Positions 5,176 through 63,537 of a DNA stretch of 64,000 nt are shown here, one piece after another (the stretch's first letter is position 1; every line of letters begins with the position of its first letter). Under the pieces are notes generated by a model, which saw only the letters and a program-made list of their open reading frames with translations, was not told the DNA's origin and ran no database searches. A program made the translations under genes and the position numbers. The stretch is from Gammaproteobacteria bacterium. Its GTDB lineage: Bacteria; Pseudomonadota; Gammaproteobacteria; Steroidobacterales; Steroidobacteraceae. The stretch covers positions 1,104 through 65,103 of the forward strand of contig JASHSK010000221.1 of NCBI GenBank assembly GCA_030038755.1, given 5' to 3'.

Positions 5176-6123
5176 TCATTCCAGCGGGATACGCGATTTA
5201 TTCTTCGCGAGCCACTGGTCGAAGGTCTGCAGCGCCGGGTTCAACGAGCGCGCGACCTTCAGATCGCGTGCGCCGACGAACTGCGTTTCGAAGTCGCGGT
5301 AATACTGGAACATGTTGCCGAGGTCCTCGGCGCCGGGGAAGCCGAACTTGCGATACGCGTCGGGCGATACTTCGTTGTAACGCACTTCCGTGCCGAACGC
5401 CTTCGACAGCGACTCGGCCATCTGCTTGCCGGTCAGGTGCTCGCCGGCGATGGCCACGCGCTTGCCGATGTACTCCGGCTTCTTGAAGATGCCGTAGGCG
5501 ACCTTGCCGATGTCCTCGGCGGCGATGCCGGACATGCGCTTGTCGCCCACGGGGAAGGTGATCGCGTACTTGCCGTCCGGCCCCTTCTTCGGGCCCATGC
5601 CGAACAGGTACATGTTGTCCCAGTAGAAGGTCGTCAGCAGGAACGTGACCGGCAGTCCCGCGTCCGTGAAGAAGTGATCGGCCTCACCCTTGGAATCGAA
5701 GTGCGGGCACTTGTACTTGCCCTGCAGTGTCGGCATGCGATTGTCGCTGAGCGGTACGAGCTTGCGCGTGTCCTCGAGCGTCGACCAGATCACATGCTTG
5801 ACGCCGGCGTGCTTCGCGGCCGTCGCCATGTTGCGGGCGTGCGCCTGCTCCTTTTCCGGGGAGAAGTGCGCCCAGAAGAAGGTTACGCAATAGACGCCGT
5901 AGGCGCCGGCAAAGGCGCGCTCCAGGCTCTTCTCATCGTCCAGATCGGCGGCCACGACCTGCACGCCCTGTTTGGCGAGCGCCTTGGCCTTCTCGCTGTT
6001 CACATCGCGGGTGATCGCGCGGGCCTGGAAGCCGCCGTTGGGGTCATCGAGGATGGCGCGAATCAGTCCCGAGCCTTGCGAGCCGGTGGCGCCCATGACG
6101 GCGATGATCTTTTTGTCAGCCAT
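5176..6123 (-). CDS. NmrA-family NAD(P)-binding protein
   Basis: N-terminal Rossmann motif IAVMGATGSQGSGL. Overall NmrA/HSCARG-like pattern over ~315 aa (VHIWSTLED.., KCPHFDSKGE). Confidence 0.85.
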   Translation of the reverse strand: MADKKIIAVMGATGSQGSGLIRAILDDPNGGFQARAITRDVNSEKAKALAKQGVQVVAADLDDEKSLERAFAGAYGVYCVTFFWAHFSPEKEQAHARNMATAAKHAGVKHVIWSTLEDTRKLVPLSDNRMPTLQGKYKCPHFDSKGEADHFFTDAGLPVTFLLTTFYWDNMYLFGMGPKKGPDGKYAITFPVGDKRMSGIAAEDIGKVAYGIFKKPEYIGKRVAIAGEHLTGKQMAESLSKAFGTEVRYNEVSPDAYRKFGFPGAEDLGNMFQYYRDFETQFVGARDLKVARSLNPALQTFDQWLAKNKSRIPLE

Positions 6124-6223: not shown

Positions 6224-7336
6224 CTATCCGGCGATTTCCTTGCGGACGATCTTTGCGCCATCGACCAGCGCCTTCAATTTCATCCGGGCGACGGTGCGGG
6301 ACAGCGGCTTCATGCCGCAATCGGTGGACAGATAGACCCTCTCGGGAGGCACCACCTTCAGGACCTTCCTGATCCGCTCGGCAACGTGCTCCGGCGATTC
6401 GACCATCATCGTACGGATGTCGAGCACGCCCACCTGCACTTCCTTGTTCTTGGGCAGCGACTTCAGGCACTCGATGTCCGCCATCTCCCGATTGGCGAAG
6501 TCGAGCACGAACTGATCGATCGGCACGTCGTAGAAGTACGGCAGCACCACTTCATAGCCCTTCGGGAAGATGCCGCTGAGCGCATTGCCCCAGGCATTAC
6601 CGAAGCAGAAGTGCCAGGCGATCTTGGCATCGACGCCCTCGACACACTTGGTGATCACGTCCGCGATCCACTTGTAATCGTTGGGATCGTTCGTGAACAG
6701 CGGCAGCCAGGCCCCCAGGTCCTCGATCTGCAGGTACTTCGCGCCCGCCGCCACCAGCTCCTTCATCTCGGCATTGAAGATCGGCGCCAGCGCCAGGCTC
6801 AGCTCGCGCGGATTCTTGTAATGCTTGAAGTGCACGTGCCAGGCGAGGTTGACCGGTCCCGCTCCCACCGACACCTTGATCGGCTTGTCGGTGAAGCGCT
6901 TTGCGATCCTGTAGAGATCGGCGAGGCGGATGGGCCCGTGCTTGACGGGGCCGCTGTTGATCACACCGCCCCAGTCCGCCAGCAGCTCCACCTCCTTGGT
7001 GCGCACCGCGGCGCCCACCTCGGAAGGGTGCGGCTCCTTGGCCGGCTCGAAGCCCGGAATGCGCTCGTACATGTACCAGCAGAACGAGCCGATCACTCCG
7101 ACATAATCGTCGTAGCTCATCTGGCCGTCGGTGACGATATCCAGACCGGCGTCTTCCTGGTCCGTGATCGCGGCGCGCGTGGCGTCATCGTATGCTTCGG
7201 CGTGTCCGACGTGCTTGAAGGCCACGCGCACATCCTTGCCGAGCAGCTGATACTTGTACCACTCCGGCCGCGGGTACGATCCCACCATCGTGGTGGGGAG
7301 AATGGTGTCTACGATCTTACGTGCCATAAGCGTCAC
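6224..7336 (-). CDS. short MetE-like (cobalamin-independent methionine synthase C-terminal domain family) Zn-methyltransferase
   Basis: LPTTMVGSYPRPEWY N-terminus. Zn-ligand motifs are retained: WHFCFGN (His-x-Cys) and STDCGM (Cys). Length is ~370 aa, i.e. catalytic domain only. Confidence 0.85.
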   Translation of the reverse strand: MTLMARKIVDTILPTTMVGSYPRPEWYKYQLLGKDVRVAFKHVGHAEAYDDATRAAITDQEDAGLDIVTDGQMSYDDYVGVIGSFCWYMYERIPGFEPAKEPHPSEVGAAVRTKEVELLADWGGVINSGPVKHGPIRLADLYRIAKRFTDKPIKVSVGAGPVNLAWHVHFKHYKNPRELSLALAPIFNAEMKELVAAGAKYLQIEDLGAWLPLFTNDPNDYKWIADVITKCVEGVDAKIAWHFCFGNAWGNALSGIFPKGYEVVLPYFYDVPIDQFVLDFANREMADIECLKSLPKNKEVQVGVLDIRTMMVESPEHVAERIRKVLKVVPPERVYLSTDCGMKPLSRTVARMKLKALVDGAKIVRKEIAG

Positions 7337-49431: not shown

Positions 49432-51882
49432 ATGTCCACGACGCCTTCACCCGCACAGCCGCGCCGGACGGACCCGCTGCAGCAGCGCCTCGACGACGTG
49501 GGCTTCATGACCTGCATGACCATCGTGCTGCTGGGCAATTACGCGCAGACGGGTCATTTCGGCGGGCCGCTCGCCTATACGCCTTACAACGTCTGCGCAC
49601 ACCTGGCGGGGGCCGATCTGGGTGGCCTGAGATACGACTATCGCCGACCCAAGCACCCCTTCGGCGATAAGTTCATGCTGGCGGGTGGGCATAACATCCC
49701 GACCGGGTATGCGTTGTGGATGATCCTGGGGCAGGCGCTGGAACGCCGCTACCGGCTCACGGGCGACCGGCGCTATTACGTGGATCCGAAGGTCGCCATT
49801 CTGCCGATCGACGCCCTCGGGTTCCGGCGCGGCGCAGGCGCGCTCGAGACACTGTTACGCGACTGCGACCTGGCCGGTCATCCGTTGTTCGAGCAGGCGC
49901 GCCTGCGGGGCATCAAGGCCCTTGCCGGACATGCCGAGAGCACGGATGTCACCAACGACGTGAATGGCGGCCCCTCCGGCGTCGGCATTGCAACGGCCGC
50001 GGGCAAGGCCGCGTTCTGGGACATGATCGGGGCACCGCAGTCCCTCAAGATCATCGCGTTCGAGGGTGAGTTCGCCATGACGGAAGGTCATGCGCAGGAG
50101 CTCAAGACCCAGGCCCTGGCGCTGCAGGTGGGCAAGCGCCTGCGGATCCTGCTGTCCCACAACAACGCCGGCATCGATGACGTGCTGGTCGGCGGAGTCA
50201 TCCCCGCGAAGTTCAGCGGGTACGACCTGGTCAAACAATGGACCTCGTACGGCTGGAATGTCTTCGAGCTGGAAGATGGCAATGACTATGAGCAGATCAT
50301 CGGCGCCCTGACTGCCATGGAGCGATGGGATCCGGATGACCGGCGACCCATGATCGTCATTGGCCGCACGACGAAGGGGTACTGGCCCTGTCCGGTCGAG
50401 CGCCAGGTGGTCAGTTATCAGAGCCACCCCTACGGCATGAAGATGAACTCGGACTACTTCGTATCGCTGGCGAGGACGTTCGAGGAGCGATACGGGGTGC
50501 AGTTTCAGGGCATTCGCGCGGGTCCCGTCACCGACCCGCGTGAGCGGCTGATCCAGTTCAAGACCAATATCGACGTCGTGATGTCGGTACTCGACCGTCA
50601 TGGGCTCGGAGACTGGCTGGCGGACCGCCTCGTCGAGATCGGCGACAGCGTGCGGGACGATTTCCCCGTTCAGATCGATATCGGCACGGATCCGTTCCTC
50701 GACGAGCGGTTGCGCGTGGCGAACCTGCCCACCGAATCGCGGACGGTCACCGCGATCAACCGGGTCTCCGGCGCCGAAAAGCCGCTCTCCATTCGCCTGT
50801 TCCGTGAGCCCGGAGAAGTCGCCGGCACTCGCCGGGCAATCTCCGAAATCATCCGGTGGCTGAACTATGTCACCGGTGATCGGATGATCACGCTGGCGGC
50901 CGATCTGTCCGAATCGATCAATCTCGAGCACGGCAGCCTCTGGGGGCATTACGACCCGGTCACGAACCCGCTGGGAACGCGCGTCAAGGCCGCCATCCAG
51001 GAGGCTGGGAACGTATCGACGGCCATCGGCCTCGTGAGCCAGAGCGCGAGCCTCGATCCGACCCGATTCGCGGGGCTATGGGCGATCAGCGGAACGTATG
51101 GCGCATTCACCCCGCTCATGTACACGCCGGCGCGCGTGTGGAGCCAGCAGAATCAGGACAGCAGATTTCGCATGGGTGTGCTGCACATCCTGGCGGGCCA
51201 TTCCGGGCCCGAAACCGCGGCCGACGGACGCACTCACTTCGGCATCTTTGCCACGCAGGTGTGGAAGCTTTTCCCGCGAGGTCAGACCATTCATCTGAAC
51301 TTCTGGGATTACAATGATGTGGCTCCGGGCTATTTCGCCGCGGCGGAAATCGCGGCGCGGGATCCCAGGGTCGGGATCATTTCCATCGAGGTTGCGCGCC
51401 CGGACTTCCCGGTATCCGATCGCAGCAGATTCGCGGACCGGGATCTCAAGGCCGCCGCCAAGGGCTTATACGTGATCCGCGACTTCAGTGCCGGCCATCC
51501 GCGGCAGGGCTATGTGCTCGTGCAGGGCAGCAGCTCGACCGTGAATCTCGTGAGGCAGCTGCCGCACATCGAGCAGGCCGGCCTGAACGTCAAGATCATC
51601 GCCGTGGTCAGCGAAGAGCTGTTCGACCGCCAGCCCGCCGGCTATCGGCATGCGGTACTGCCACCCGAGGCGTATGGCGACGCCATGGTCATCAGCACGG
51701 GCACGCGCCGCCTGTGGCCGATCCGCAATCTCGGCCCGCAGACGGATGAATATTCCCTCACCTCCGACTGGCATGACGAATGGCTGACCGGGGGCCTGGA
51801 GGCGGATGTCATTGCCGAGGCTCATCTGGACGAGCACTCGATCTTCGACGGCATCAAAAGGTTTGCGTCGCGGCCTCGGTGA
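49432..51882 (+). CDS. divergent transketolase-like thiamine-diphosphate enzyme (816 aa)
   Basis: Blocks align to transketolase N-terminal motifs. GHFGGP corresponds to GHPGG, FMLAGGH to VLSNGH, AGHAES to GHPE, GGPSGVG to GPLGQG, and FEGEFAMTEG...SHNNAGID to GDGCLMEG...DDNGISID. Pyrimidine-binding and C-terminal-like regions follow. Confidence 0.65.
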   Translation: MSTTPSPAQPRRTDPLQQRLDDVGFMTCMTIVLLGNYAQTGHFGGPLAYTPYNVCAHLAGADLGGLRYDYRRPKHPFGDKFMLAGGHNIPTGYALWMILGQALERRYRLTGDRRYYVDPKVAILPIDALGFRRGAGALETLLRDCDLAGHPLFEQARLRGIKALAGHAESTDVTNDVNGGPSGVGIATAAGKAAFWDMIGAPQSLKIIAFEGEFAMTEGHAQELKTQALALQVGKRLRILLSHNNAGIDDVLVGGVIPAKFSGYDLVKQWTSYGWNVFELEDGNDYEQIIGALTAMERWDPDDRRPMIVIGRTTKGYWPCPVERQVVSYQSHPYGMKMNSDYFVSLARTFEERYGVQFQGIRAGPVTDPRERLIQFKTNIDVVMSVLDRHGLGDWLADRLVEIGDSVRDDFPVQIDIGTDPFLDERLRVANLPTESRTVTAINRVSGAEKPLSIRLFREPGEVAGTRRAISEIIRWLNYVTGDRMITLAADLSESINLEHGSLWGHYDPVTNPLGTRVKAAIQEAGNVSTAIGLVSQSASLDPTRFAGLWAISGTYGAFTPLMYTPARVWSQQNQDSRFRMGVLHILAGHSGPETAADGRTHFGIFATQVWKLFPRGQTIHLNFWDYNDVAPGYFAAAEIAARDPRVGIISIEVARPDFPVSDRSRFADRDLKAAAKGLYVIRDFSAGHPRQGYVLVQGSSSTVNLVRQLPHIEQAGLNVKIIAVVSEELFDRQPAGYRHAVLPPEAYGDAMVISTGTRRLWPIRNLGPQTDEYSLTSDWHDEWLTGGLEADVIAEAHLDEHSIFDGIKRFASRPR

Positions 51883-52465
51883 CGACACAGTCCATGCGGA
51901 TGTCGTGCGCCAGCGGATGGATCGTGGGGATGCGCGCCAGCTCGCAGGCGATTCCCACCAGACGCGGGCGCGGAACCAGCGTCGCCACGGTACGGTCGTA
52001 GTAGCCGCCGCCGTAGCCGAGTCGGAACCCCGCGGCATCGAAGCCCACCATGGGGATGAGCAGCGTATCGGGCTGCACGACGGCGCCGTCGGCCGGGTAG
52101 GGGATGTCGTAGACACCCACCTGCATGCGCGCACCGGGCTGCCAGAGGCGGAACTCCAGGGGCTCCTTCTTGACGCGAATCGTGGGCAGTGCGACCTGCA
52201 TGCCCTCGGCGATGCACTGTTGCAGCAGCGGCAGGGGATTGAACTCGCGCCGAATCGGCCAGTAGGCCCCCAGGATCGCCGGATGCAACGCTCCGAGCAC
52301 CGCCCCGAGGCGCTCGGCGATGGCCGCGGTAGCGGCCCGATGCGCGGCCGTCGGCACGTCGAGGCGCGCGGCCAGGAGCCGCTCGCGCTCGGCGCGCCGG
52401 AACGCCATGATGGCGTGGCGCGCCTCGGTCGCGCCCTCCGCAGCTGGTCCGCGCTCCCCGGACAT
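51854..52465 (-). CDS. 5-formyltetrahydrofolate cyclo-ligase
   Basis: R..LL..R motif, ILGAYWPIRREFN, and LIPMVGFDAAGFRLGYGGGYYDR, the signature of the 5-FCL family. The start lies 3 nt after the fhs stop. Confidence 0.85.
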   Translation of the reverse strand: MSGERGPAAEGATEARHAIMAFRRAERERLLAARLDVPTAAHRAATAAIAERLGAVLGALHPAILGAYWPIRREFNPLPLLQQCIAEGMQVALPTIRVKKEPLEFRLWQPGARMQVGVYDIPYPADGAVVQPDTLLIPMVGFDAAGFRLGYGGGYYDRTVATLVPRPRLVGIACELARIPTIHPLAHDIRMDCVVTEAATQTF

Positions 52466-52468
52466 TCC

Positions 52469-54178
52469 TCAGGACAGGCCGGAGATCAGGCCGTCGGCGC
52501 TGACCTGGATGTCTTCGGCCGAGGGCGCACGCGGCAGCCCCGGCATCGTCATGATCTCCCCGCAGATGACCACCACGAACTCCGCGCCGGCCGACAGGCG
52601 CACCTCGCGGACCGGCAGGGCGAAGCCGCTCGGGGCGCCGCGCAGCTCCGGATCGGCCGAGAAGCTGTACTGCGTCTTGGCCATGCACACCGGCAGGCGG
52701 CCGAATCCCAGCTGCTCGAACTCCTTGAGCCGATCGGCGACCGGCTTGGGGATCACGACTTCGCCGGCGCCGTAGATCTGCGTGGCGATCGTCTCGATCT
52801 TCTTGGCAAGCGGCAGCTCGTCCGGGTAGAGGGGTCGGAAATCGGCCTTGCCGCTCTCGACCGTCGACACCACGACACGGGCCAGTGCCTCGGCCCCGGC
52901 GCCGCCCTTGGCAAAGTGCTCGCACACCACCGCCGTGACGCCCACGGCGGCGCAACCGTCCACGACGGCGGCAAGCTCCGCCTCGGTGTCGCTGCCGAAG
53001 CGGTTGATGCACACGACCGCGGGCACGCCGAAGCGCGCGACGTTGTCCAGGTGGCGGCGCAGATTGGCGAGGCCGCGGGTGACGGCCGAGGGGTTCGGCG
53101 TGGCGAGCTCGGCCTTGGGAGCTCCGCCGTGCATCTTCAATGCGCGCACGCTGGCGACCACCACGGCGACGTCCGGCGTCAGCCCGGCCTTGCGGCACTT
53201 GATGTCGAAGAACTTCTCCGCGCCCAGGTCCGCGCCGAAGCCGCACTCGGTGACCGTGTAGTCGGCCAGGCGCAGCGCGAGAGAAGTGGCGATCACGGAG
53301 TTGCAGCCGTGCGCGATGTTGGCGAACGGTCCGCCGTGCACGAAGGCCGGATTGTTCTCCAGCGTCTGTACCAGATTGGGCTTGAGAGCATCCTTCAGCA
53401 GCGCGGTCAGCGCGCCCTCGGCCTTGAGATCACCGGCGCGCACCGGCTTCTTGTCGCGCGTGCTGGCCACCACGATGTTGGCCAGGCGGCGCTGCAGATC
53501 CTGCAGCGAGGTCGCCAGGCACAGGATCGCCATGATCTCGCTGGCCGCGGTGATGTCGAACCCGTCCTCGCGCGGATAGCCGTTGGCGGCTCCGCCGAGG
53601 GACGAAACGATCGAGCGCAGTGCGCGGTCGTTCATATCGAGACAGCGCCGCCAGGTCACGCGACGCGAATCGATGCCCAGGGAGTTACCCCAGTACACGT
53701 GGTTGTCGATCAGCGCCGCGAGCAGGTTGTTCGCGGCGGTCACGGCGTGGATATCGCCGGTGAAATGCAGGTTGATCTCGTCCATCGGCACGACCTGCGA
53801 GCGGCCACCGCCGGCCGCGCCGCCCTTCATGCCGAAGCACGGGCCCAGGCTCGCCTCGCGCAGGCAGATTGCCGTGCGCTTGCCGATGCGGTTGAGCGCA
53901 TCGCCGAGCCCCACCGTCGTGGTGGTCTTGCCCTCGCCGGCAGGCGTCGGGTTGATCGCCGTGACCAGTACCAGCCGCCCCGGTCGCCGTTCGGCCAGCA
54001 CCTTGCGGATGAACGCCATGCTGATCTTCGCCTTGGTCTGGCCATAGGGCTCGACCGCGTCGGCGGGAATCCCGAGCTTTTCCTGTGCAATGCGCGTGAT
54101 GGGCCACAGTTGCGCGGCGTTGGCAATCTCCCAGTCGCTCTGCGGGACTGCCTTGGCCGTTGCGGTGCTGGTGCTCAT
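52469..54178 (-). CDS. fhs: formate-tetrahydrofolate ligase
   Basis: [16 protein letters not shown]-loop, [14 protein letters not shown], and [21 protein letters not shown]. ~569 aa. Confidence 0.95.
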
Positions 54179-54244
54179 GTTGGGTGACTCGCAGTAGGGG
54201 TTGCCTGGTGGTGGTTGGTGGACGGGGGCGCTGATGGATTGACG

Positions 54245-55180
54245 CTAGCTGGTCCCGGCGCGCGCGCACGCCGCGTCGATGGTATTGGACAGCAGCATGG
54301 CAATGGTCATCGGGCCCAGGCCGCCGGGGACGGGCGTGATCCAGCCGGCCCGCTCGGCCGCGCGCTCGAACTCGACGTCGCCGCACAGCTTGCCGTTGGC
54401 TGCCCAGCTGATGCCGACGTCGAACACGGCCGCGCCGGGGCGGATCCAGTCGCCACGGATCAGGCCGGCCTTGCCGACCGCCGACACCAGCACCTCGGCG
54501 CGCTCCACGTCCGCACGCAGGTCACGCGTGGCGATGTGGCAGACCGTGACCGTCGCTTCGGCGAGCAGCAGCTCCATGGCCATCGGGCGACCCACGATGG
54601 TGGAGTCTCCGACCACCGTGGCCTTCACGCCGCGCAGCGCGATGCCGTATTCCTGCGCCAGCCGGATGACGCCGTAGGGGGTGCACGGTCGCAGACGCGG
54701 GCGCTTCTGGGCCAGCAGCCCGAAGTTGACCGGGTGAAAGCCGTCGACGTCCTTGCGCGGATCGATGGCGTCCATGATGCGATCCGGGCTCAACCCGCCC
54801 GGCAGCGGCAGCTGCACCAGGATGCCATCCACCCGCTCGTCGCGGTTCAATTCCGCGATCAGCGCGAGCAGCTGCGACTCCGCCGTGGCCGCGGGCAGGT
54901 CATGTCCGAAGGACTCGATACCCGCCTCCTGGCAGGCCTTGCGCTTGTAGCTCACGTAGACGCTCGAGGCGCGGTCCTCGCCGACCTGCACGACCGCGAG
55001 GCCGGGACGCCGGCCGGTACGCGCCGCGAAGCCCGCAGCGCGTGCCGCGACCTCGTGGCGAACCTTTCTCGCCAGCGCGGCACCGTCCATGACGACGGCA
55101 CGACCCGCCGGCGCACTCGACGCGCTGCGCGCCGCCGGGGCCGCCGGCCTGGCCGCTGTGACTGCCTCGCGCTCGGACAT
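54245..55180 (-). CDS. folD: bifunctional methylene-THF dehydrogenase / methenyl-THF cyclohydrolase
   Basis: Has ..DGAALARKVR..., PGLAVVQVGEDRASSVYV..K, DGILVQLPLP, VVGDSTIVGRPMA and TPVPGGLGPMT. The start may be the internal M at 55090. Confidence 0.92.
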   Translation of the reverse strand: MSEREAVTAARPAAPAARSASSAPAGRAVVMDGAALARKVRHEVAARAAGFAARTGRRPGLAVVQVGEDRASSVYVSYKRKACQEAGIESFGHDLPAATAESQLLALIAELNRDERVDGILVQLPLPGGLSPDRIMDAIDPRKDVDGFHPVNFGLLAQKRPRLRPCTPYGVIRLAQEYGIALRGVKATVVGDSTIVGRPMAMELLLAEATVTVCHIATRDLRADVERAEVLVSAVGKAGLIRGDWIRPGAAVFDVGISWAANGKLCGDVEFERAAERAGWITPVPGGLGPMTIAMLLSNTIDAACARAGTS

Positions 55181-55328
55181 CCTCTGCTACCTCGATCTAC
55201 TGCCCGTGCGCGCCACGCGCACGGCGTGCCGCGCGCCACGGGGCGCACCAGGGCTGTCTGCCTGCGATGATCGGACCGGACACCGCGTCGCTGCCCTGAG
55301 GATGCGGGCGCGGTGTCCGCGCATTCGA

Positions 55329-56750
55329 TCAGTACCGGTAATGATCGGCCTTGTACGGGCCAGCCTTGCTGACGCCGATGTACCTGGCCTGCACGTCGGA
55401 GAGCTCGGTGAGCTGCGCATTGAGCTTCTTCAACTGCAGCCGCGCGACCTTCTCGTCCAGGTGCTTGGGCAGCACGTACACGCCGATCGGGTATTTCGCC
55501 GTGTGGGTGAACAGCTCGATCTGCGCCATGGTCTGATTGGCGAACGAGGAGCTCATCACGTAGCTGGGATGCCCGGTGCCGCAGCCCAGATTCACCAGCC
55601 GCCCTTCGGCCAGCAGGATGATGCGCCTGCCGTCCGGGAAGATGATGTGATCGACCTGTGGCTTGATGTTCTCCCACTGGTACTGCTTGAGCGCCGCGAC
55701 CTCGATCTCGTTGTCGAAGTGCCCGATGTTGCACACGATCGCGTTGTTCTTCATACGCTTCATGTGCTCGTGGGTGATGACGTGGAAGTTGCCGGTGGCG
55801 GTCACGAAGATGTCGGCCTTGTCGGCGGCGTAGTCCATGGTGACCACGCGATAGCCCTCCATCGCGGCCTGCAGCGCGCAGATCGGATCGATCTCGGTCA
55901 CCCACACCTGCGCCGACAGGGCGCGCAGCGCCTGGGCCGAGCCCTTGCCCACATCGCCGTAGCCCGCGACCAGGGCGATCTTGCCGGCCACCATCACGTC
56001 GGTGGCGCGCTTGATGCCGTCGACCAGCGATTCGCGGCAGCCGTACAGGTTGTCGAACTTGGACTTGGTGACCGAGTCGTTGACGTTGAAGGCCGGGAAT
56101 GCGAGCTCCCCGTCCTTGGCCATGTGATACAGGCGCTTGACCCCCGTGGTGGTCTCCTCGCTGACGCCCTTGATGGCCTTCAGGCGCGTGGAGTACCAGG
56201 TCGGATCCTTTTTCAGCGTCTCGCGGATGGCCGCGAACAGCGCCTCCTCTTCCTCGCTGGTCGGCTTGGCGATGACCGAGGGGTCACGCTCGGCCTTCGT
56301 GCCCAGGTGCAGCAGCAGTGTCGCGTCCCCGCCGTCATCGAGGATCATGTTCGAGTAGCCGCCGTCCGGCCACACGAAGGTACGGTGCGTGAAGTCCCAG
56401 TACTCGGTCAGCGACTCGCCCTTGTAGGCGAACACCGCGGTACCGCGCGCGGCGATGGCCGCGGCGGCATGATCCTGCGTCGAGAAGATGTTGCACGAAG
56501 CCCAGCGCACCTGGGCACCGAGTGCCTGCAGCGTCTCGATCAGCACCGCCGTCTGGATCGTCATGTGCAACGAGCCGGTGATGCGCGCGCCGCGCAGCGG
56601 CTGGCTGGCGGCATACTCCTCGCGGATGGCCATCAGGCCGGGCATCTCGGTCTCCGCGATGAGGATTTCCTTGCGTCCCCAGTCCGCGAGCTTGATGTCG
56701 GCGATTCGGTAGGGATCCTTGCCGACGCTCGATTGCAGTACTGCGTTCAT
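55329..56750 (-). CDS. ahcY: adenosylhomocysteinase
   Basis: [42 protein letters not shown], and NAD motif [11 protein letters not shown]-terminal KADHYRY. M at 56750 is preceded by ggagaa; the track ORF extends to 56810. Confidence 0.95.
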
Positions 56751-56822
56751 TGATCTGTTCTCCATCCGATAGGTACGGCCGTCACCGGCCACCGCGGGCA
56801 GTGCCCGCATTCGCTGTGCCTC

Positions 56823-58007
56823 TCAACCGACGGCGCGCGCCTTCACACCGGCATCGGCTGCCAGCGCCTGTGCCTTGTCGGTCTTCTCCCAGGTGAAGCT
56901 CGGCAGCTCGCGGCCGAAGTGACCGTAGGCCGCGGTCTGCTGATAGATCGGGCGCAGCAGGTCGAGCATCTGGATGATGCCCTTCGGGCGCAGGTCGAAG
57001 TGCTTGAGCACCAGCTCCTCGAGCTTCTCGTCGGAGATCTTGCTGGTGCCGAAGGTGGTCACCATGACGCTCGTGGGGCGCGCGACGCCGATCGCATAGG
57101 ACACCTGCACCTGGGCGCGCGTGGCGAGCCCGGCGGCGACGATGTTCTTGGCGACGTAGCGGGCGGCATAGGCAGCCGAGCGATCGACCTTGGAAGGATC
57201 CTTGCCCGAGAACGCGCCGCCACCGTGAGGAGCGGCACCGCCGTAGGTGTCCACGATGATCTTGCGACCGGTCAGACCGCAGTCACCCTGCGGTCCGCCG
57301 ACCACGAAGCGGCCGGTGGGGTTCACCAGAAAGCGGATGCTCTTGCCGATCAAGTCCTTCGGCAGCACCGGCTTGATGATCTCCTCGATCACCGCCTCGG
57401 AGAGCTTGCCGTGCTCGATCTCAGGCGCGTGCTGCGTGGAGATCACGACGGTGTCGATATCCTTGGGCTTGCCATCCACGTAGCGCAGCGTGACCTGCGA
57501 CTTGGCGTCCGGGCGCAGCCACGGAAGCCTGCCCGAGCGACGCAGCTCCGCCTGGCGCTCCACCAGGCGGTGGGCCAGATGGATCGGCAGCGGCATCAGC
57601 TCCGGGGTCTCGTTGCAGGCGTAGCCGAACATCATGCCCTGGTCGCCCGCGCCCTGCTCGAGGTTCAGCCCGCGCCCCTCGTCAACGCCCTGCGCGATGT
57701 CCGGGGACTGCTTGTCGTAGGCGACCAGCACGGCGCAGCCGCGGTAGTCGATGCCGTACTCGGTATTGTCGTAGCCGATGCGCTTGATGGTCTCGCGCGC
57801 CAGCGTCTGGTAGTCGACCGTGGCCTTGGAGGTGATTTCGCCTGCGAGCACTACCAGGCCCGTGCTGACCAGCGTCTCGGCGCCTACGCGGGAATATTTG
57901 TCCTGTTCCAGCAGCGCGTCGAGAATCGTGTCCGAGATTGCATCGGCGACCTTGTCCGGATGTCCTTCGGAGACCGACTCGGAGGTAAACAGATATTCGT
58001 TGGCCAT
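56823..58007 (-). CDS. metK: S-adenosylmethionine synthetase
   Basis: [34 protein letters not shown]...[20 protein letters not shown] at 58007; the 553-aa track ORF is an upstream extension. Confidence 0.95.
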
Positions 58008-58093
58008 GGCGTAATCCTGCAATAGGTGTGAGTTTCGTGTAGGGAAGATTGATGTGTGAATCGCTGGTGAAGAATCCCGTGAATGCGTACTGA

Positions 58094-59134
58094 TCAGCTG
58101 CCGGTGCGCGTGCGCGCGGCGCCCGCGGCACTCGCGGCGCCCGCGCCGAAGCTTTCGGCGAGCCGCCGGTCGAATTCCTCGCGCGTGAAGCGATGATTCT
58201 GCGTGCCGCGCGTCTCGATCTTGATCGCCCCCATCAGCGAGGCGATGCGTCCGGTGCTCTGCCAGTCCAGGCCGTGCAGCAGGCCGTGCAGGATACCGGC
58301 GCGATAGGCATCGCCGCAGCCGGTCGGATCGACCACGGCGCGCGGCTTGGCGCTGGGAATCTCCAGATCCCCGTCGCGCGTGTGTATGAGCGAGCCCTGC
58401 GAGCCGCGCGTGACGATCAGCGCCTGCACGCGCGCCGTGAGGTCGCGCACGCTCCAGCCGGTCTTCTGCTGCACCATCTGCCACTCGTAGTCGTTGACCG
58501 CGACCCAGGTGGCCTGGCCGACGAAGGTGTCCAGCTCCTCGCGCCCGAACATCGGCAGGCCCTGGCCGGGATCGAAAATGAAGGGGATGCCGGCGTCGGC
58601 GAACTGCTTGGCGTGCTGGATCATGCCATCGCGCCCGTCGGGAGCGACGATGCCGACGGCGATGTCACGCGCGTCGGTGGCGCGATTGAGGTGCGAGGAC
58701 TGCATGGCGCCGGGGTGAAAGGCGGTGATCTGGTTATCGTCCAGATCGGTGGTGATGAACGCCTGCGCGGTCAGCGCGTCCTCGATCACGCGGATGTAAT
58801 CGGTCGGCACGCCGTTCGTCACCATCCACTCACGGTAGGCGCCGAAGTCGCTGCCGACGGTGGCCATCGGATAGCCGCGGTCGCCGAGCAGCTTGAGCCC
58901 GTAGGCGATGTTGCCCGCACAGCCGCCGTACTCGCGCCGCAGCTGCGGCACGAGGAACGATACGTTCAGCATGTGGATCTTGTCGGGCAGGATGTGGTTC
59001 TTGAAGCGATCGCCGAACACCATGATGTTGTCGAACGCGACCGATCCACAGATCAGGGCGCTGCGCGATGCGCCGGCGGCGCGCGGCGCACCGTGCGCGG
59101 CGGCGTGCGCGGCTGGGGCGGGGGAATTGGCCAT
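58094..59134 (-). CDS. PfkB-family carbohydrate/nucleoside kinase, adenosine kinase-like
   Basis: PfkB signatures GG.AGN.A and [12 protein letters not shown]. Bacterial adenosine-kinase-like length. Methyl-cycle context (adenosine is the AhcY product). Confidence 0.7.
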
Positions 59135-59201
59135 GGATACGGTTCTCGCTGTCTGTCGGGTCAGGTTGCCATCGATTGCGGATATCGGTGCCGGGGTGCG
59201 C

Positions 59202-60128
59202 TCAGCTCATCTGGAACTTGCCGCCATCCTCCGGCAGCTCGAAGCGTCCCTCGGCCACGCGCCGCAGCCACTGTGCGGTGGCGACCGTGCCTCCGAACGC
59301 GAAGAAGTGCGGCTTCACCAGATGCGTCGTGCCGCTGCCGGCGCCCAGGCCCACCAGTTCCACGAGCATCTCGTCGGGGGAGGTGGCCAAGCCCACCATT
59401 TTACGCATGGTCGCCATGTTCTTCATCACCGCGCGGAGCGAGGCACCCACGCCACATTGCATCGCGAACTTGATCAGCTTGGGCAGCGGCGTCGGTCCGG
59501 CGATGCCCACGTGCACCGGCAGGCCGATGCCGTGCTCTTTCAGGGCGCGCTCGAAACCGCCCACGGCCTGCGGATCGAAGCTGAACTGCGTGACGATGTG
59601 CACCTTCAGGCCGCTGGCCAGCGCAAACGCCTGCTTGCGCGTCAGCGCCTGCCACAGCGCCGCGGTGCCGATGGCGGGATTGCCCTCGGGGTGGCCGGCG
59701 ACGCCGATGCGCGGCATGCGCACCTGCTCCAGACAGCCCGAATCGAGCACATCGAGCGTACTGGTGAAACCGCCGGCCGGCTCGGCCAGATCCCCGGCGA
59801 TGAGCAGCACCTGCTCGACGCCGCCCTCGCGCAGCTGGCCGAGCGCGCGCGCCAGGGCCTCGCGGCTCTGCAGGCGCCGCGCGACGATGTGCGGGGAGGC
59901 CGGCAGGCCCAGGGCCTGCAGCTTCACCGCGACGCGCACCACCTGATCGAGCGTGGCTTTGGGCGTGTGCGCCACGTAGACGGGAGTGCCGGGCGGCAGC
60001 TCCGCGGCGAGCGTCGCCAACTGCTCCTCGTCGTGCGTGGAGATCTCGATGGAGGCGTCGCGCGCAAAATCGACAATGCGGCGCTTGAGCTGCTCCGCCG
60101 TCAGCGGCGTTGTGATCACGGCGTTCAT
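59202..60128 (-). CDS. metF: methylenetetrahydrofolate reductase (MetF) family protein, divergent type
   Basis: Blocks align with E. coli MetF. LIAGD corresponds to ALRGD, VAGHPEGNP to AAYPEVHPEA, IVTQFSFD to AITQFFFD, and VGIAGP to IPGILP. Confidence 0.75.
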   Translation of the reverse strand: MNAVITTPLTAEQLKRRIVDFARDASIEISTHDEEQLATLAAELPPGTPVYVAHTPKATLDQVVRVAVKLQALGLPASPHIVARRLQSREALARALGQLREGGVEQVLLIAGDLAEPAGGFTSTLDVLDSGCLEQVRMPRIGVAGHPEGNPAIGTAALWQALTRKQAFALASGLKVHIVTQFSFDPQAVGGFERALKEHGIGLPVHVGIAGPTPLPKLIKFAMQCGVGASLRAVMKNMATMRKMVGLATSPDEMLVELVGLGAGSGTTHLVKPHFFAFGGTVATAQWLRRVAEGRFELPEDGGKFQMS

Positions 60129-61321
60129 GGCTTGCGTCGCGCGACCGTGAAGGTCTCATCGTTGAACCACAGCCCGCCGTGCTTCTGCAGCACCGCCTGC
60201 GTCGCCTCCAGATAGGCGCCGTTGTTGGCCGGCTCGAGCCGCTCGTCCTCGATCTGATTGACGTAGATGGCGGCATTCCAGGCTGCGTACAGCGTGGAGG
60301 TGCCGATGCGGTCGCTGATTTCCGAGGGCAGCGTGTGCATGTCGTAACGGAACACCGCCTTCTCGTCCGCGTAGGAGCCGAAGGTGAAGTCCCTGGCGTC
60401 ACGCCCGAGCTCGGTCTTGAGGGCGGCGATGAGCTGATGACGGTCGACCGCGAAGGGGTTCTCCCCCGGCCACACGCGCTGGATGATCTCGAGGCCCGGA
60501 TCCTTGCCGAAGGACTGGATCACGAGCATGCGCCCATTGGGTGCCAGGCTCGAGGCGAGCGGCGCGAGCACTTTCTGTGCCTTGAACTGTGCCGACATGC
60601 GCGCGCGCCAGGGCTGCGAGGCGAGCACCAGATCGTAACTGTCGAAGATGCGCCCGGGCTTGGGGATCACCGCATCGAGCAGGAACTTGTGATCGTCGCG
60701 ATAGATGACGAGCACCGAGGGACGCACGTGAATCGGATTGCCGGTCTTGGGACTCGGTCTGGTCTGCCACCCATAGAAAAGCGTGGGCGCGAGCTCCTCG
60801 ATCTGCTCGGAGTACTCGGCCGAGGAGTCGCCCGTGAGGCGCACTTCCTGCCAGTTCAGAGCGGCCACCGAGGGCTCGTCACGCGGCATCAGCCGCGGGG
60901 CCTCGGCATAGTTGAGATTGGTGACCACCAGCACCGTGGCCGGATGCTCGTAGAAGCGATCGGGCATCTTGTCCAGACCGAGGCGCACATCCTCGAGGGA
61001 AATTTCCTTCGCGACTGCCAGCAGCGGGACGGTGGGAAACAGGTGGTGCGTGCTGCGCATGAGGCGCGAGAGCACCGTGGCATCGCCCATGCCCGCATCA
61101 AACACACGCAGCGCCGGCGGCGAGGGGCGCAGATGACCGAGCTCCTGCGCGGCGCGGCGCGCGACCGCGGACTTCTCGTTGCAGGTGTTGACGAAGGCGA
61201 GATATTTCTGACGGTTGTCGTAGAAGCGAAACGGCGGCTTGCCGTCCGCCGCTGCGGCGGGCGCTGCATCCGGCGCAGCAGTCTTCAGCTCGGTGGTTTT
61301 GGAATTGGGTGCGAGGTTCAT
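60125..61321 (-). CDS. uncharacterised protein with class I SAM-methyltransferase-like motifs
   Basis: VFDAGMGDATVL (motif I-like), LLAVAKEIS (acidic post-I position) and LAPNGRMLVIQSFG (motif IV/V-like). Its stop overlaps the metF-like ATG (ATGA). ATG at 61321; the track ORF extends to 61384. Confidence 0.45.
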   Translation of the reverse strand: MNLAPNSKTTELKTAAPDAAPAAAADGKPPFRFYDNRQKYLAFVNTCNEKSAVARRAAQELGHLRPSPPALRVFDAGMGDATVLSRLMRSTHHLFPTVPLLAVAKEISLEDVRLGLDKMPDRFYEHPATVLVVTNLNYAEAPRLMPRDEPSVAALNWQEVRLTGDSSAEYSEQIEELAPTLFYGWQTRPSPKTGNPIHVRPSVLVIYRDDHKFLLDAVIPKPGRIFDSYDLVLASQPWRARMSAQFKAQKVLAPLASSLAPNGRMLVIQSFGKDPGLEIIQRVWPGENPFAVDRHQLIAALKTELGRDARDFTFGSYADEKAVFRYDMHTLPSEISDRIGTSTLYAAWNAAIYVNQIEDERLEPANNGAYLEATQAVLQKHGGLWFNDETFTVARRKP

Positions 61322-61378: not shown

Positions 61379-61393
61379 ATCCAAAGTTTGGAT
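61379..61393. promoter_or_regulatory. perfect 15-bp palindrome ATCCAAAgTTTGGAT (T-N11-A, LysR-box-like) upstream of the methyl-cycle gene string
   Basis: Read directly. It lies 58-72 nt upstream of the ATG at 61321 in a locally AT-rich patch, immediately downstream of a LysR-family gene. Confidence 0.4.
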
Positions 61394-61459: not shown

Positions 61460-62386
61460 TCAGGCGGGTCGCGCGGCGTCCGCGATCAGGCGGCGCATCC
61501 ACGCATGGCCCGGGTCCGGCTCGCTGCGGCGGTGCCAGAACAGCATGACGCGACCCTGCAGCGTCAGCCCCGGGGGCAGCGGGAAGATGCGGATCGCCAG
61601 CGAGGGGCGCAGCAGCGTCGCGAGCGTTTCGGGCATGATGGCCAGCAGCGTCGTCCCCGGCAGCATGAAGGGCACCTCCAGGACGTTCTCGGTGGTGGCG
61701 CGCACATTAAGTCGCAACCCGAGCTCGCGGCGCACGATATCCTCGGTGGGCAGCATTTCCCCGGGCGAGCGCACATAGATGTGCGGCAGGCTCAGGTACT
61801 GCTCACGTGTCAGCTCCTCGCGCACCGTGGGATGATCGGCCGAGGCCACACACACCCAGTGCACCCGCAGCAGCTCGGTGCGTGCCAGCCACTCGGGAAA
61901 GCTCTGCACGCCGAGCAGCTCCGGGTTGTCGGGCATCACCAGGAAATCGATGTCGCCGGCGGCGAGCTTGTCCACGCCCGAGCGCGACCACGCGACGAAG
62001 CGCAGCTGCACTCCTGGGGCCTCCGGGACGACGCGCTGCAGCAGCCGCGCGGACAGCCGGGGTATCAGCAGATCCGACAGCATCACCGAGAAGCCGCGGC
62101 GGGTCGCCGCAGGGTCGAAGATGGGCTGCGTACCGAGCGTCGCCTGGATGTGCAGCAGCGTGCTACGCACCGGCTCGAGCAGCGAGGCACCCCGTGGCGT
62201 GAGCTCGAAGTCGCGGCCGACGCGCACCAGCAGCTCGTCGTTGAAGTACTCGCGCAGCCGGTGCAGCGCCGCGCTCATGGCGGGCTGAGAAACGTGGATA
62301 TGCTCGGCGGCGCGGGTGACGTTCTTGTGGTGCAGCACCGCGTCCAGGGCAATCAGCAGGTTCAGGTCGAAGCCGCTCAGGCGCAT
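61460..62386 (-). CDS. LysR-family transcriptional regulator
   Basis: N-terminal wHTH FDLNLLIALDAVLHHKNVTRAAEHIHVSQPAMSAALHRLREYF plus a LysR substrate-binding domain. 308 aa. Confidence 0.92.
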   Translation of the reverse strand: MRLSGFDLNLLIALDAVLHHKNVTRAAEHIHVSQPAMSAALHRLREYFNDELLVRVGRDFELTPRGASLLEPVRSTLLHIQATLGTQPIFDPAATRRGFSVMLSDLLIPRLSARLLQRVVPEAPGVQLRFVAWSRSGVDKLAAGDIDFLVMPDNPELLGVQSFPEWLARTELLRVHWVCVASADHPTVREELTREQYLSLPHIYVRSPGEMLPTEDIVRRELGLRLNVRATTENVLEVPFMLPGTTLLAIMPETLATLLRPSLAIRIFPLPPGLTLQGRVMLFWHRRSEPDPGHAWMRRLIADAARPA

Positions 62387-62502: not shown

Positions 62503-62526
62503 ATAATGTTTAAACAAATCAATTAT
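62503..62526. promoter_or_regulatory. AT-rich dyad ATAAT-N14-ATTAT (contains GTTTAAAC) in the lysR/fdhD divergent intergenic region
   Basis: Read directly. It is the only AT-rich patch in the 266-bp intergenic region. Confidence 0.35.
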
Positions 62527-62652
62527 ATCCGCGCGGCCGACGCGGCGGGGGTAAACCTGCATGCACCGCCGGCCGCAGCGGACAGAATCCCGGGCTGGCC
62601 CCAGCGGCGGGCTTTCCCGCAGGTGCAGGCGCCGGCTGGGCGAGGCGGTATC

Positions 62653-63537
62653 ATGACGAGCATGGAAACTGTCGTCGCGCCAGATCAGGTCGACGCGCCG
62701 CCGGCCCCCAGCGGCACGATGAACGTGCGCGTGCTGAAGGCCGGTCTCGAATCCCGATCCGAGAAGGACGATCGAGTGGCCGTCGAAGGGCCGCTGGAGT
62801 ACATGCTGCAGCATCCTCTGCTCGGTCTCGAGCCCATTTCCTTCGGGACGACCATGAGGACACCGGGAGACGATGAAAATCTCGCCGTCGGGCTGCTGTA
62901 TGGAGAAGGAATCATCAGCCGGCCCGGCGACGTCGATGCGATCGAGTCCAGCACGCGCCGCCCCAACGTCGTCAATGTTCGGCTGCGTCCGGAGGTGCAG
63001 TTCGAGCTGCAGCCACCGACGCGGCGATTCTCGGCGGGCTCGAGCTGCGGCGTCTGCGGCACGACCGGACTGGACGGTGCGATTGCCAGGGCGGCCGCCA
63101 CACGCATCGCCGAGGGCGGTGCGGTCGAGCTGGCGACGTTGCTGAGCCTGCCCGACGTCATGCGCAGGCAGCAATCGAAGTTTGGCGACACCGGCGGCGT
63201 GCACGCCGCCGCGTTGTTCGACTTCGCGGGCAATCTGCACAGCATTGCCGAGGATGTGGGGCGCCACAACGCGCTCGACAAATTGGTAGGCAGGAATTTG
63301 ATGGCTGGGCGCCTGCCACTCGAGCAACACATCGTGCTGCTGAGCGGGCGCGCCAGCTATGAGCTCGTGCAGAAGGCGCTGCGCGCCGGCGTCGCGGTGC
63401 TCGCCGCCATCGGCGCCCCCTCCAGTCTGGCAGTCAACCTGGCGCGCGCTTCGGGGCTGACACTGGCGGGTTTCGTGCGCTCGACGCAGTGTAACGTGTA
63501 CTCGAATCCGCAGCGTCTTGCCGCCGCACGGCATTGA
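62653..63537 (+). CDS. fdhD: formate dehydrogenase accessory sulfurtransferase FdhD
   Basis: SSCGVCG cysteine motif, EDVGRHNALDKLVG, and LLSGRASYELVQKA. The ATG at 62653 gives a ~294 aa product. The track ORF start at 62506 lies in the AT-rich promoter-like patch. Confidence 0.88.
   Translation: MTSMETVVAPDQVDAPPAPSGTMNVRVLKAGLESRSEKDDRVAVEGPLEYMLQHPLLGLEPISFGTTMRTPGDDENLAVGLLYGEGIISRPGDVDAIESSTRRPNVVNVRLRPEVQFELQPPTRRFSAGSSCGVCGTTGLDGAIARAAATRIAEGGAVELATLLSLPDVMRRQQSKFGDTGGVHAAALFDFAGNLHSIAEDVGRHNALDKLVGRNLMAGRLPLEQHIVLLSGRASYELVQKALRAGVAVLAAIGAPSSLAVNLARASGLTLAGFVRSTQCNVYSNPQRLAAARH

Follow-up and report, generated by a model that had tools for sequence, protein, structure and literature searches.

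An eight-gene string joining the SAM cycle to folate one-carbon interconversion, and its possible role as a methyl-group hub in a Steroidobacteraceae lineage

Several described systems bring the genes of S-adenosylmethionine (SAM) metabolism together with those of folate one-carbon metabolism, or couple folate to demethylation. A survey of methionine regulons in proteobacteria lists ahcY-metF and SahR regulons and leaves adenosine kinase and fhs unmentioned (PMC4239095). The ligM-metF-ligH operon of Sphingobium SYK-6 encodes a type-4 methylenetetrahydrofolate reductase (MTHFR) which oxidises 5-methyltetrahydrofolate (methyl-THF) (PMC11868366), and which is a flavin adenine dinucleotide (FAD) enzyme marked by Leu-Pro, Arg and Pro motifs in three of its loops. 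The flavin-independent MTHFRs of mycobacteria, here called Mfr, and the core MetE families of bacteria are the other relevant points of comparison. The present work concerns a string of eight genes on the minus strand of a 64,000-nucleotide stretch of DNA (the window, positions 1104-65103 of contig C297, JASHSK010000221.1) from a gammaproteobacterial metagenome-assembled genome of the family Steroidobacteraceae (GCA_030038755.1, hereafter G000; 3.74 Mb in 376 contigs), in which the genes of the SAM cycle are joined end to end with those of folate one-carbon interconversion.

The interpretation favoured here, to which we give an even chance, is that the string is the methyl-group hub of a lignin-aromatic-degrading lineage of Steroidobacteraceae which has lost MetH and has no full-length MetE. 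LigM-type O-demethylases would make methyl-THF from methoxylated aromatics, and the Mfr encoded in the string would interconvert methyl-THF and methylene-THF. The methyl-THF would have two fates. The first would be transfer of the methyl group to homocysteine, likeliest by a core MetE of the type labelled c11 below, closing a SAM cycle in which MetK would supply the cellular methyltransferases, AhcY would follow them, and a kinase would remove the adenosine; the second would be oxidation through FolD and Fhs to formate, which would free the tetrahydrofolate (THF). The methyltransferase-fold protein that heads the string (MT) would bind SAM or SAH (S-adenosylhomocysteine) as a sensor or regulatory partner, and control of the promoter would have passed to an adjacent LysR protein acting at a conserved 15-bp dyad. 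The gene identities, the synteny and the phyletic patterns on which this interpretation is built are direct observations, and they are given first.

An earlier note made from the sequence of the window had placed eight open reading frames here, separated by anything from a 4-nt overlap to 148 nt. All eight are present on the minus strand, the spacing is recovered (gaps in transcription order of -4, 67, 86, 12, 148, 66 and 3 nt), and the gene identities that the note proposed stand up to Pfam, NCBIfam and PDB-sequence matches, two of them in a sharpened form: the gene called metF-like does encode an MTHFR-like protein, which can now be assigned to the flavin-free Mfr type, and the “methyltransferase-like unknown” does have a methyltransferase fold in a structural model, to which must be added that its sister clade bears a DNA-binding head. 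In transcription order the genes are as follows.

60125..61321, minus strand: MT, a 398-residue class I methyltransferase-fold protein (fold from an AlphaFold2 (AF2) model; member of a clade without the DNA-binding head)
59202..60128, minus strand: Mfr-type MTHFR (7xg9, E 2.2e-45; start overlaps the MT stop in ATGA)
58094..59134, minus strand: PfkB-family adenosine/nucleoside kinase, AdoK (PF00294; 3b1n, 2pkf)
56823..58007, minus strand: metK, S-adenosylmethionine synthetase (TIGR01034, 599 bits, cut-off 309; single copy in the genome)
55329..56810, minus strand: ahcY, S-adenosylhomocysteine hydrolase (TIGR00936, 598 bits, cut-off 498; single copy)
54245..55180, minus strand: folD, methylene-THF dehydrogenase/methenyl-THF cyclohydrolase (NF008058, 390 bits, cut-off 355; single copy)
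52469..54178, minus strand: fhs, formate-tetrahydrofolate ligase (NF010030, 890 bits, cut-off 652; single copy)
51854..52465, minus strand: MTHFS, 5-formyl-THF cyclo-ligase (TIGR02727, 131 bits, cut-off 85)

MetK, AhcY, FolD, Fhs and MTHFS all exceed the curated NCBIfam equivalog cut-offs, and the likely start of metK is the ATG at 58007. The kinase matches the nucleoside kinase of Burkholderia thailandensis (3b1n) at E 7e-116 and the adenosine kinase of Mycobacterium tuberculosis (2pkf) at E 2.7e-57, and it is by this close similarity a PfkB adenosine kinase, its substrate being predicted. A tblastn search of the whole assembly found no second copy of any of the eight string proteins, the only further match being a weak and partial one to PfkB. 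Because there are no second copies in the assembly, the string is taken to be the cell's working set for the SAM cycle and folate interconversion rather than a spare one. The G+C content of the window is 62-71% throughout, without a compositional break at the eight-gene cluster, and the closest proteins in the databases bear Steroidobacteraceae names.

The conservation of the string was evaluated in a sample of 41 genomes consisting of G000 and 40 relatives, among which G007 and G014 (100% and 92% complete) belong to the same genus as G000; in an order-wide sample of 401 genomes, whose families are labelled f9, f11 and f21; and at 80 MT loci from other species (given L-numbers), 72 of which have downstream sequence. 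The unpublished genomes G005, G040 and G444 enter the tallies only, and no specific claim depends on them. MT is present in 6 of the 40 relatives, and the full order, including the LysR gene that lies upstream of the string, is kept in G007 and G014 alone among them, at 65-90% protein identity. Partial strings were found in G004 (MT-AdoK-metK-ahcY) and in G032, a genome of a different family (MT-metK-ahcY-fhs). Five MT-less genomes of the genus were also checked; four of these keep just metK-ahcY, and in the fifth the contig begins some 600 nt away from ahcY, which puts metK out of view. At six of the MT loci (in the range L049-L058) the order is MT-Mfr-metK-AdoK-ahcY-fhs, accompanied, in between four and six cases according to how the genes are called, by a convergent c11 gene, and shorter variants of this kind with a short MetE-like gene are standard in part of a sister family. 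The gene directly 3' of MT encodes an Mfr in 24 of the 72 loci and a canonical MTHFR in 2.

The full arrangement, which had earlier been called unfamiliar, is thus not commonplace, being found in 3 of the 41 related genomes, G000 included, and most genomes of the genus have metK-ahcY only. While few genomes have precisely these eight genes in this order, variations on the theme are met with in several lineages, and the string is a derived expansion of an ancestral metK-ahcY pair. No published description of the eight-gene arrangement was found in a literature search, and the layout is undescribed but assembled from known parts. It has nevertheless to be asked whether the adjacency means anything at all, since the eight genes might be housekeeping neighbours that are transcribed separately: three gaps of 66-148 nt could hold promoters, and scans for promoters and terminators were uninformative. 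This reading is highly improbable, as the order and strand are kept in three genomes despite diverged intergenic sequence, and other families and classes contain related strings built out of these same genes. Chance alone does not account for the arrangement, whose order, including the LysR gene, is kept in two further genomes and partial versions of which occur in other lineages.

Methionine synthase is the only step missing from the string, as had been pointed out from the sequence alone, and the gap extends to the whole genome, where neither metH nor metE was found, only short MetE-like genes. The assembly of G000 lacks the MetH activation domain, the homocysteine-binding S-methyltransferase domain and the MetE N-domain (Meth_synt_1); G007 and G014 likewise have no MetH domains and no MetE N-domain. 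In most of the genus metF and metH are adjacent. The genes for homocysteine synthesis (a MetX-like acyltransferase and several Cys/Met pyridoxal phosphate enzymes) are present in G000, and those of G000, G007 and G014 look no different from the set of a relative that has MetH; the cells should therefore make methionine and need a synthase for it. The candidate for this step and the gene 3' of it lie near the other end of the window.

6224..7336, minus strand: core MetE-like gene of the c11 type (Meth_synt_2 domain only; HxC and DCG motifs; about 45 kb from the string)
5176..6123, minus strand: NmrA-like NAD(P)-binding protein (PF05368; 3' of the core MetE gene; 62% identical to neighbour family c29)

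G000 has several short MetE-like genes, three of them in the window, and the HxC and DCG zinc motifs are present in all four that were examined. The product of 6224..7336 is the orthologue, at 63.5% identity, of the c11 product encoded at the end of MT-...-fhs clusters in other genomes, and falls below every NCBIfam methionine synthase cut-off; the NmrA-like family c29 flanks MT clusters in other genomes. Among the 41 relatives c11 is confined to G000, G007, G014 and G032, which are exactly the MetH-less genomes with metK-ahcY-fhs strings, and in the order-wide sample (n=401) it is confined to G000 and 33 of the 63 f9 genomes, 31 of these 33 also having MT, usually on the same contig at a distance of 6-11 kb. 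MT itself occurs in 40 of 74 MetH-less genomes of the order-wide sample as against 22 of 327 MetH-bearing ones, and within f9 in 32 of 33 as against 3 of 30; these co-occurrence counts are drawn from related genomes, amount to only a handful of independent events and are not readable as probabilities. The c11-type core MetE is, from its sequence and distribution, the likeliest candidate for the enzyme that would transfer the methyl group of methyl-THF to homocysteine. A search for MesX, the partner of core MetE, gave no match, but the control genomes were silent too, so this result is uninformative.

The association of MT with MetH-less genomes also raises the question of whether MT takes part in methionine synthesis. 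The idea that MT simply replaces MetH is ruled out, as many MT genomes retain MetH. A subtler proposal is that MT pairs with the core MetE, with Mfr or with both, either taking part in catalysis or presenting the substrate, in an undescribed cobalamin-independent route from methyl-THF to methionine. An MTHFR of one type or the other lies directly 3' of MT in 26 of the 72 loci, a MetE-like gene lies 5' of MT in several loci, and MT and c11 co-occur almost perfectly in the MetH-less part of f9, all of which would be expected of such a partnership; but many MT genomes have MetH and no c11, the DNA-binding head of the sister clade is more simply explained by regulation, and those methyl-folate enzymes that are known are TIM barrels rather than Rossmann-type methyltransferases. 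We consider the proposal very unlikely.

Two further MetE-like genes lie in the window. The c11-type gene at 6224-7336 (minus strand) forms a divergent pair with the one at 7622-8806 (plus strand), the two being 35% identical to each other and both having the zinc motifs, and the paralogue at 7622-8806 is distributed over the 41 relatives as narrowly as c11 and in the same pattern. The third gene, at 43169-44323, ends a string that encodes a TonB receptor, an aminotransferase, an oxidoreductase and a TIM-barrel protein, and is 47% identical to a MetE-like family found directly 5' of MT in other Steroidobacteraceae, a family which there adjoins genes for CoA-transferase, glyoxalase-type and intradiol dioxygenase proteins. 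Family f21 is another MetH-less lineage with a different solution: none of its 10 genomes has the MetH activation domain, MT or c11.

The reductase of the string does not belong with canonical MetF. It scores 31.7 bits against PF02219 and fails TIGR00676 (43 bits against a cut-off of 293.7), and its alignment with the flavin-independent MTHFR of Mycobacterium smegmatis (7xg9), which covers about 270 residues, is far stronger than that with the best FAD-type MTHFR (4e-9). The catalytic Glu (position A) and the pterin-binding Gln and Asp positions that have been discussed for the flavin-independent class (PMC11094777) are conserved: Glu28 and Gln181 are kept in all 28 Mfr homologues adjoining MT genes and Asp113 in 27 of the 28, Glu28 aligns with the glutamate of ...SLEITP... 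in 7xg9, and the correspondence to Glu9/Gln177 of hMfr was assigned by homology. The product of 59202..60128 is accordingly placed by its sequence in the Mfr type, and flavin-free hydride transfer from NADH is predicted for it. No type-4 (S6MTHFR) chain is found among its PDB matches at E up to 1, the loop motifs being left unaligned for want of a reference sequence.

Two observations on other MTHFR genes may be added. In G019, a genome without MT, a LigM orthologue adjoins an Mfr-type MTHFR that is 35% identical to the G000 copy (G019:C4:85766-88086), which hints that Mfr enzymes partner folate-dependent demethylases. G000 itself carries on another contig (C374:15876-18399, also L104:5877-8400) a divergent MTHFR-family gene that overlaps the end of a gene for an HpaB-like flavin monooxygenase, with an AraC regulator alongside; its product is 52% identical to the MTHFR 3' of the headed MT in L060 and L061. 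It is unlikely to be a housekeeping metF, in view of its coupling to the HpaB-like monooxygenase and AraC genes and its distance from all solved MTHFRs.

The connection of the string with demethylation comes from a GcvT-family gene that recurs in or beside the clusters and is a clear LigM orthologue (5tl4, E 7.5e-177). It is found in 20 of 40 diverse MT genomes and in 13 of the 13 genomes that combine MT with at least three methyl-cycle genes, and it lies inside the cluster at L019, L023, L049 and L056, so that a side remark in the earlier note, according to which fhs, folD and metF could also run oxidatively, as in THF-dependent demethylation, has gained support. In the order-wide sample 40 genomes have both MT and LigM, 22 have MT only, 28 have LigM only and 311 have neither. 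The LigM gene of G000 is on contig C328, between genes for a TonB receptor and a LysR protein. At L019 and L023, FdhD and three further open reading frames that match formate dehydrogenase subunits by size alone are encoded 5' of MT.

These findings also bear on a narrower interpretation, in which the string would be a catabolic one-carbon oxidation unit like the ligM-metF-ligH operon of SYK-6, which provides a precedent (PMC11868366). Mfr, FolD, Fhs and MTHFS would regenerate THF from the methyl-THF made by the demethylase, yielding formate, ATP and reducing power, and the SAM-cycle genes would be mere neighbours inherited from the ancestral metK-ahcY pair. The co-occurrence of LigM with the clusters, its position inside some of them and beside an Mfr homologue in G019 agree with this, as do the presence of fdhD beside the string here, that of fdhD and formate dehydrogenase-sized genes beside MT in L019 and L023, the lack of a recognised methyl-THF-using methionine synthase in the genome, and a 148-nt hairpin spacer that parts the SAM half of the string from the folate half. 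The gene layout speaks against it, however: Mfr lies in the SAM half, overlapping the MT stop and away from folD and fhs, and metK, AdoK and ahcY are kept in the variant clusters of unrelated lineages. Mfr moreover belongs to an NADH-type reductase family and probably not to type 4, with no PDB match to the oxidising type at E up to 1, and the single-copy folD is needed for biosynthesis regardless. A purely catabolic unit is on balance improbable.

A LigM paralogue about 52% identical to the query has a single in-frame TAG in G052:C22, G053:C13, G054:C5, G221:C13 and G285:C22 (102 rows), which might reflect a pseudogene common to the five genomes, an artefact of assembly or recoding of the codon.

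MT is the least familiar member of the string. Neither its own sequence nor a family profile matches anything in Pfam, NCBIfam or the PDB sequences, and attempts to name it by sequence (Pfam, NCBIfam, PDB sequence and profile searches, ESM Atlas) led only to clusters of “hypothetical protein” and a weak CheR lead. An AF2 model built from 18 homologues (mean predicted local distance difference test (pLDDT) 85.8) is matched by Foldseek to histamine N-methyltransferase at E 8e-9, and by VIA to 5f2k (Z 16.6, root-mean-square deviation (rmsd) 4.8, 277 aligned) and 1jqd (Z 16.4, rmsd 4.5, 262 aligned). The nearest folds are small-molecule enzymes, among them histamine N-methyltransferase and a mycobacterial fatty-acid O-methyltransferase. 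In the model a glycine-rich motif I (...FDAGMGDA...) comes after strand 1 and Glu106 after strand 2, and some 90 residues form an insertion; among the homologues F74 is invariant and G79 nearly so, and E106 is invariant among the closer ones. MT has on this model a class I methyltransferase fold and is a putative SAM-binding protein.

The family comprises 1107 representatives at 50% identity and occurs in at least 562 species genomes, nearly all of them metagenome-assembled, in the Gamma-, Alpha- and Betaproteobacteria, with some bins labelled Actinomycetota and single bins labelled Myxococcota or Bacteroidota. MT is conserved at 84-86% within the genus (Mfr at 70%), to a degree comparable with the adjoining housekeeping enzymes, and at about 60% across classes. 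Of 75 family members, 39 carry a conserved head of about 60 residues at the N-terminus; it is modelled as a four-helix Cro/C1-like domain (AF2, pLDDT 89.7), and its top Foldseek matches are HipB, SinR and C.Esp1396I (TM about 0.55-0.72, E 0.07 or worse). Headed and headless sequences separate at a single branch of a quick maximum-likelihood tree (SH-like approximate likelihood-ratio test (SH-aLRT) 99; 39 against 36 rows). The G000 protein lies in the headless clade, the head is absent from that whole clade, and no helix-turn-helix domain is found in the 398 residues of MT by Pfam or in the AF2 model. The possibility that the DNA-binding head has split off was rejected, as no separate head gene was found in the genome or at headless loci. 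Both clades have common neighbours (Mfr or MTHFR, metK, ahcY, MetE-like) and are 58-67% identical in the methyltransferase-fold domain. The existence of the headless clade means that the MT domain does not always need DNA binding, which constrains a reading of the family as SahR-like regulators. No informative fusions were found, the longer database entries having no Pfam domain and most of them being probably frameshifted metagenome calls; one entry, P0185, joins the N-terminus of a PEMT/ICMT-like membrane methyltransferase to part of the MT domain, and may be a read-through of two genes.

The leading alternative for a protein of this fold is that it is a true SAM-dependent small-molecule methyltransferase of high flux, the other seven genes being a SAM-regeneration module dedicated to it. 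Formate or serine carbon would pass through Fhs, FolD and Mfr to methyl-THF, and on to methionine and SAM, and AhcY and the kinase would clear the SAH. Actinomycete biosynthetic clusters are reported to carry SAM-recycling gene sets, and MT itself has features in favour of the idea: a complete class I fold with N-, O- and S-methyltransferases of small molecules as its nearest relatives, a motif I, invariant polar residues in large number throughout the domain, a headless clade whose size and good conservation imply a function that needs no DNA binding, and coupling in several genomes to MetE-like and aromatic ring-cleavage genes. Against this, the string genes are the genome's only copies, which implies a housekeeping set and not an extra one, none of the conserved neighbours is substrate-specific, the same domain bears a DNA-binding head in half of the sampled family, and no Pfam methyltransferase model matches MT. 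The dedicated module is accordingly an unlikely explanation, and MT is, as judged from its model and family, most likely a SAM- or SAH-binding sensor or regulatory partner, as the hub interpretation supposes.

If MT has no DNA-binding domain of its own, the regulator of the string may be sought upstream of it. The features of the control region and of the one wide spacer within the string are as follows.

61460..62386, minus strand: LysR-family regulator (HTH_1 and LysR_substrate domains; 138 nt upstream of the string on the same strand)
61379..61393, no strand assigned: dyad ATCCAAA-N-TTTGGAT, 15 bp, of the T-N11-A type (candidate LysR operator or promoter element)
55181..55328, minus strand: ahcY-folD spacer, 148 nt, with a G+C-rich hairpin directly 3' of the ahcY stop

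G007 and G014 also carry the LysR gene at this position (82-85% identity), and when the three leaders are compared, conservation is confined to about 30 nt around the dyad. No second copy of the dyad occurs in the genome even when up to 2 mismatches are allowed. It was ruled out as an operator common to the whole MT family, being confined to the group of G000, G007 and G014; looser ATC-N9-GAT sites were seen at four other headless loci (L017, L019, L023 and L037), with LysR matches at three of them. Riboswitch control was rejected, Rfam at gathering thresholds having matched nothing in the window. No terminator-like site was found on the coding strand of the string, in scans for promoters and terminators that are uninformative in such G+C-rich DNA. 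A hairpin of different sequence occupies the same ahcY-folD position in G007 and G014, and the G000 hairpin has a fold z-score of -1.19, which is not significant; it may mark a boundary between the SAM-cycle half and the folate half. The eight genes may form an operon, co-transcription being putative and suggested by the gene layout. Beyond the string, fdhD (formate dehydrogenase accessory protein; PF02634 and NF001943) lies at 62506..63537 on the plus strand, divergent from the LysR gene, and at the other end an 816-residue transketolase-like gene (49432-51882), with nothing more than weak matches to the N- and C-terminal domains of transketolase, is convergent with the MTHFS gene, with an overlap of 29 nt.

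A number of considerations weigh against the hub interpretation. Transcription, flux direction and enzyme activities are all deduced from sequence, and the direction of flux, the identity of the methionine synthase, the role of MT and control by LysR are the parts of the scheme to which this applies. G000 is 86% complete and 3% contaminated, and the phyletic tallies overstate independence because they draw on related genomes. LigM and c11 both lie outside the string in G000, and 29 of 78 MT loci have no methyl-cycle neighbour within 10 kb. Many MT genomes keep MetH, among them 12 of the 13 MT-bearing genomes of f11. The conservation of MT over its whole length would fit an enzyme too, and a sensor without an output domain is unusual. 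The oxidation of methyl-THF by NAD+ is thermodynamically uphill, as judged by redox potentials. Those Mfr enzymes that have been characterised depend on NADH and work as reductases in the service of methionine synthesis (PMC11094777), and core MetE families are reported not to use methyl-THF (PMC7857596), a point against methyl-THF as the donor for c11.

The physiology of the uncultured soil and sediment Steroidobacterales is known from genomes alone, and the present results indicate that a sizeable group of them runs the methionine/SAM cycle without either textbook methionine synthase, for which c11 is a concrete candidate. They also place the mycobacterial, flavin-free type of MTHFR in Proteobacteria, alongside lignin O-demethylases, which bears on how methoxy carbon enters one-carbon metabolism. 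A bolder conjecture, which we regard as improbable, concerns both the methionine synthase and the MT family: MT, Mfr and c11 in bacteria with neither MetH nor MetE would form an undescribed cobalamin-independent path by which lignin methoxy groups harvested by LigM pass to methyl-THF and on to homocysteine, with MT serving either as the folate-side partner that the core MetE lacks or, like the regulatory domain of eukaryotic MTHFR, as a subunit of Mfr gated by SAM/SAH.

The locus thus shares features with several known systems and coincides with none of them. The ligM-metF-ligH operon of Sphingobium lignivorans SYK-6 (PMC11868366) resembles it in that an MTHFR and a formate-THF ligase occur here in a LigM-bearing genome, and LigM lies inside the cluster in some relatives; it differs in that the MTHFR here is of the Mfr type and probably not a type-4 FAD enzyme, LigM is on another contig, and SAM-cycle genes are part of the string. 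The mycobacterial Mfr enzymes (MSMEG_6649, Rv2172c and hMfr; PMC11094777) align over some 270 residues with the reductase described here, which keeps their Glu in an ...S-I/L-E-I... strand, their Gln and their Asp, whereas the copy here is gammaproteobacterial, predicted to be translationally coupled to MT, and embedded in a SAM-cycle string. The MesA-MesD families (Price et al. 2021, PMC7857596) resemble c11 in that they consist of one MetE catalytic domain bearing zinc motifs and occur in aerobic bacteria without MetH and MetE; c11 differs in its companions (MT, Mfr, Fhs and the NmrA-like protein) and in scoring below the NCBIfam cut-offs, the search for MesX having been uninformative. The ahcY-metF and metK/ahcY/metH/metF regulons under the SAH riboswitch, SahR or SamR (Leyn et al. 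2014, PMC4239095) likewise group SAM-cycle genes with an MTHFR, and a methyltransferase-fold protein heads the group here as SahR does, MT being adjacent to SAM-cycle genes, over which its control would be hypothetical. The differences are that no SAH or SAM riboswitch was found here and there is no metH, that the string adds adenosine kinase, folD, fhs and MTHFS, and that MT, unlike SahR and SamR, is without a DNA-binding domain of the ArsR or any other type and matches no known methyltransferase family in sequence. Even within its own family the G000 protein differs from the headed members, since it is headless and a LysR gene stands in the position of the regulator.

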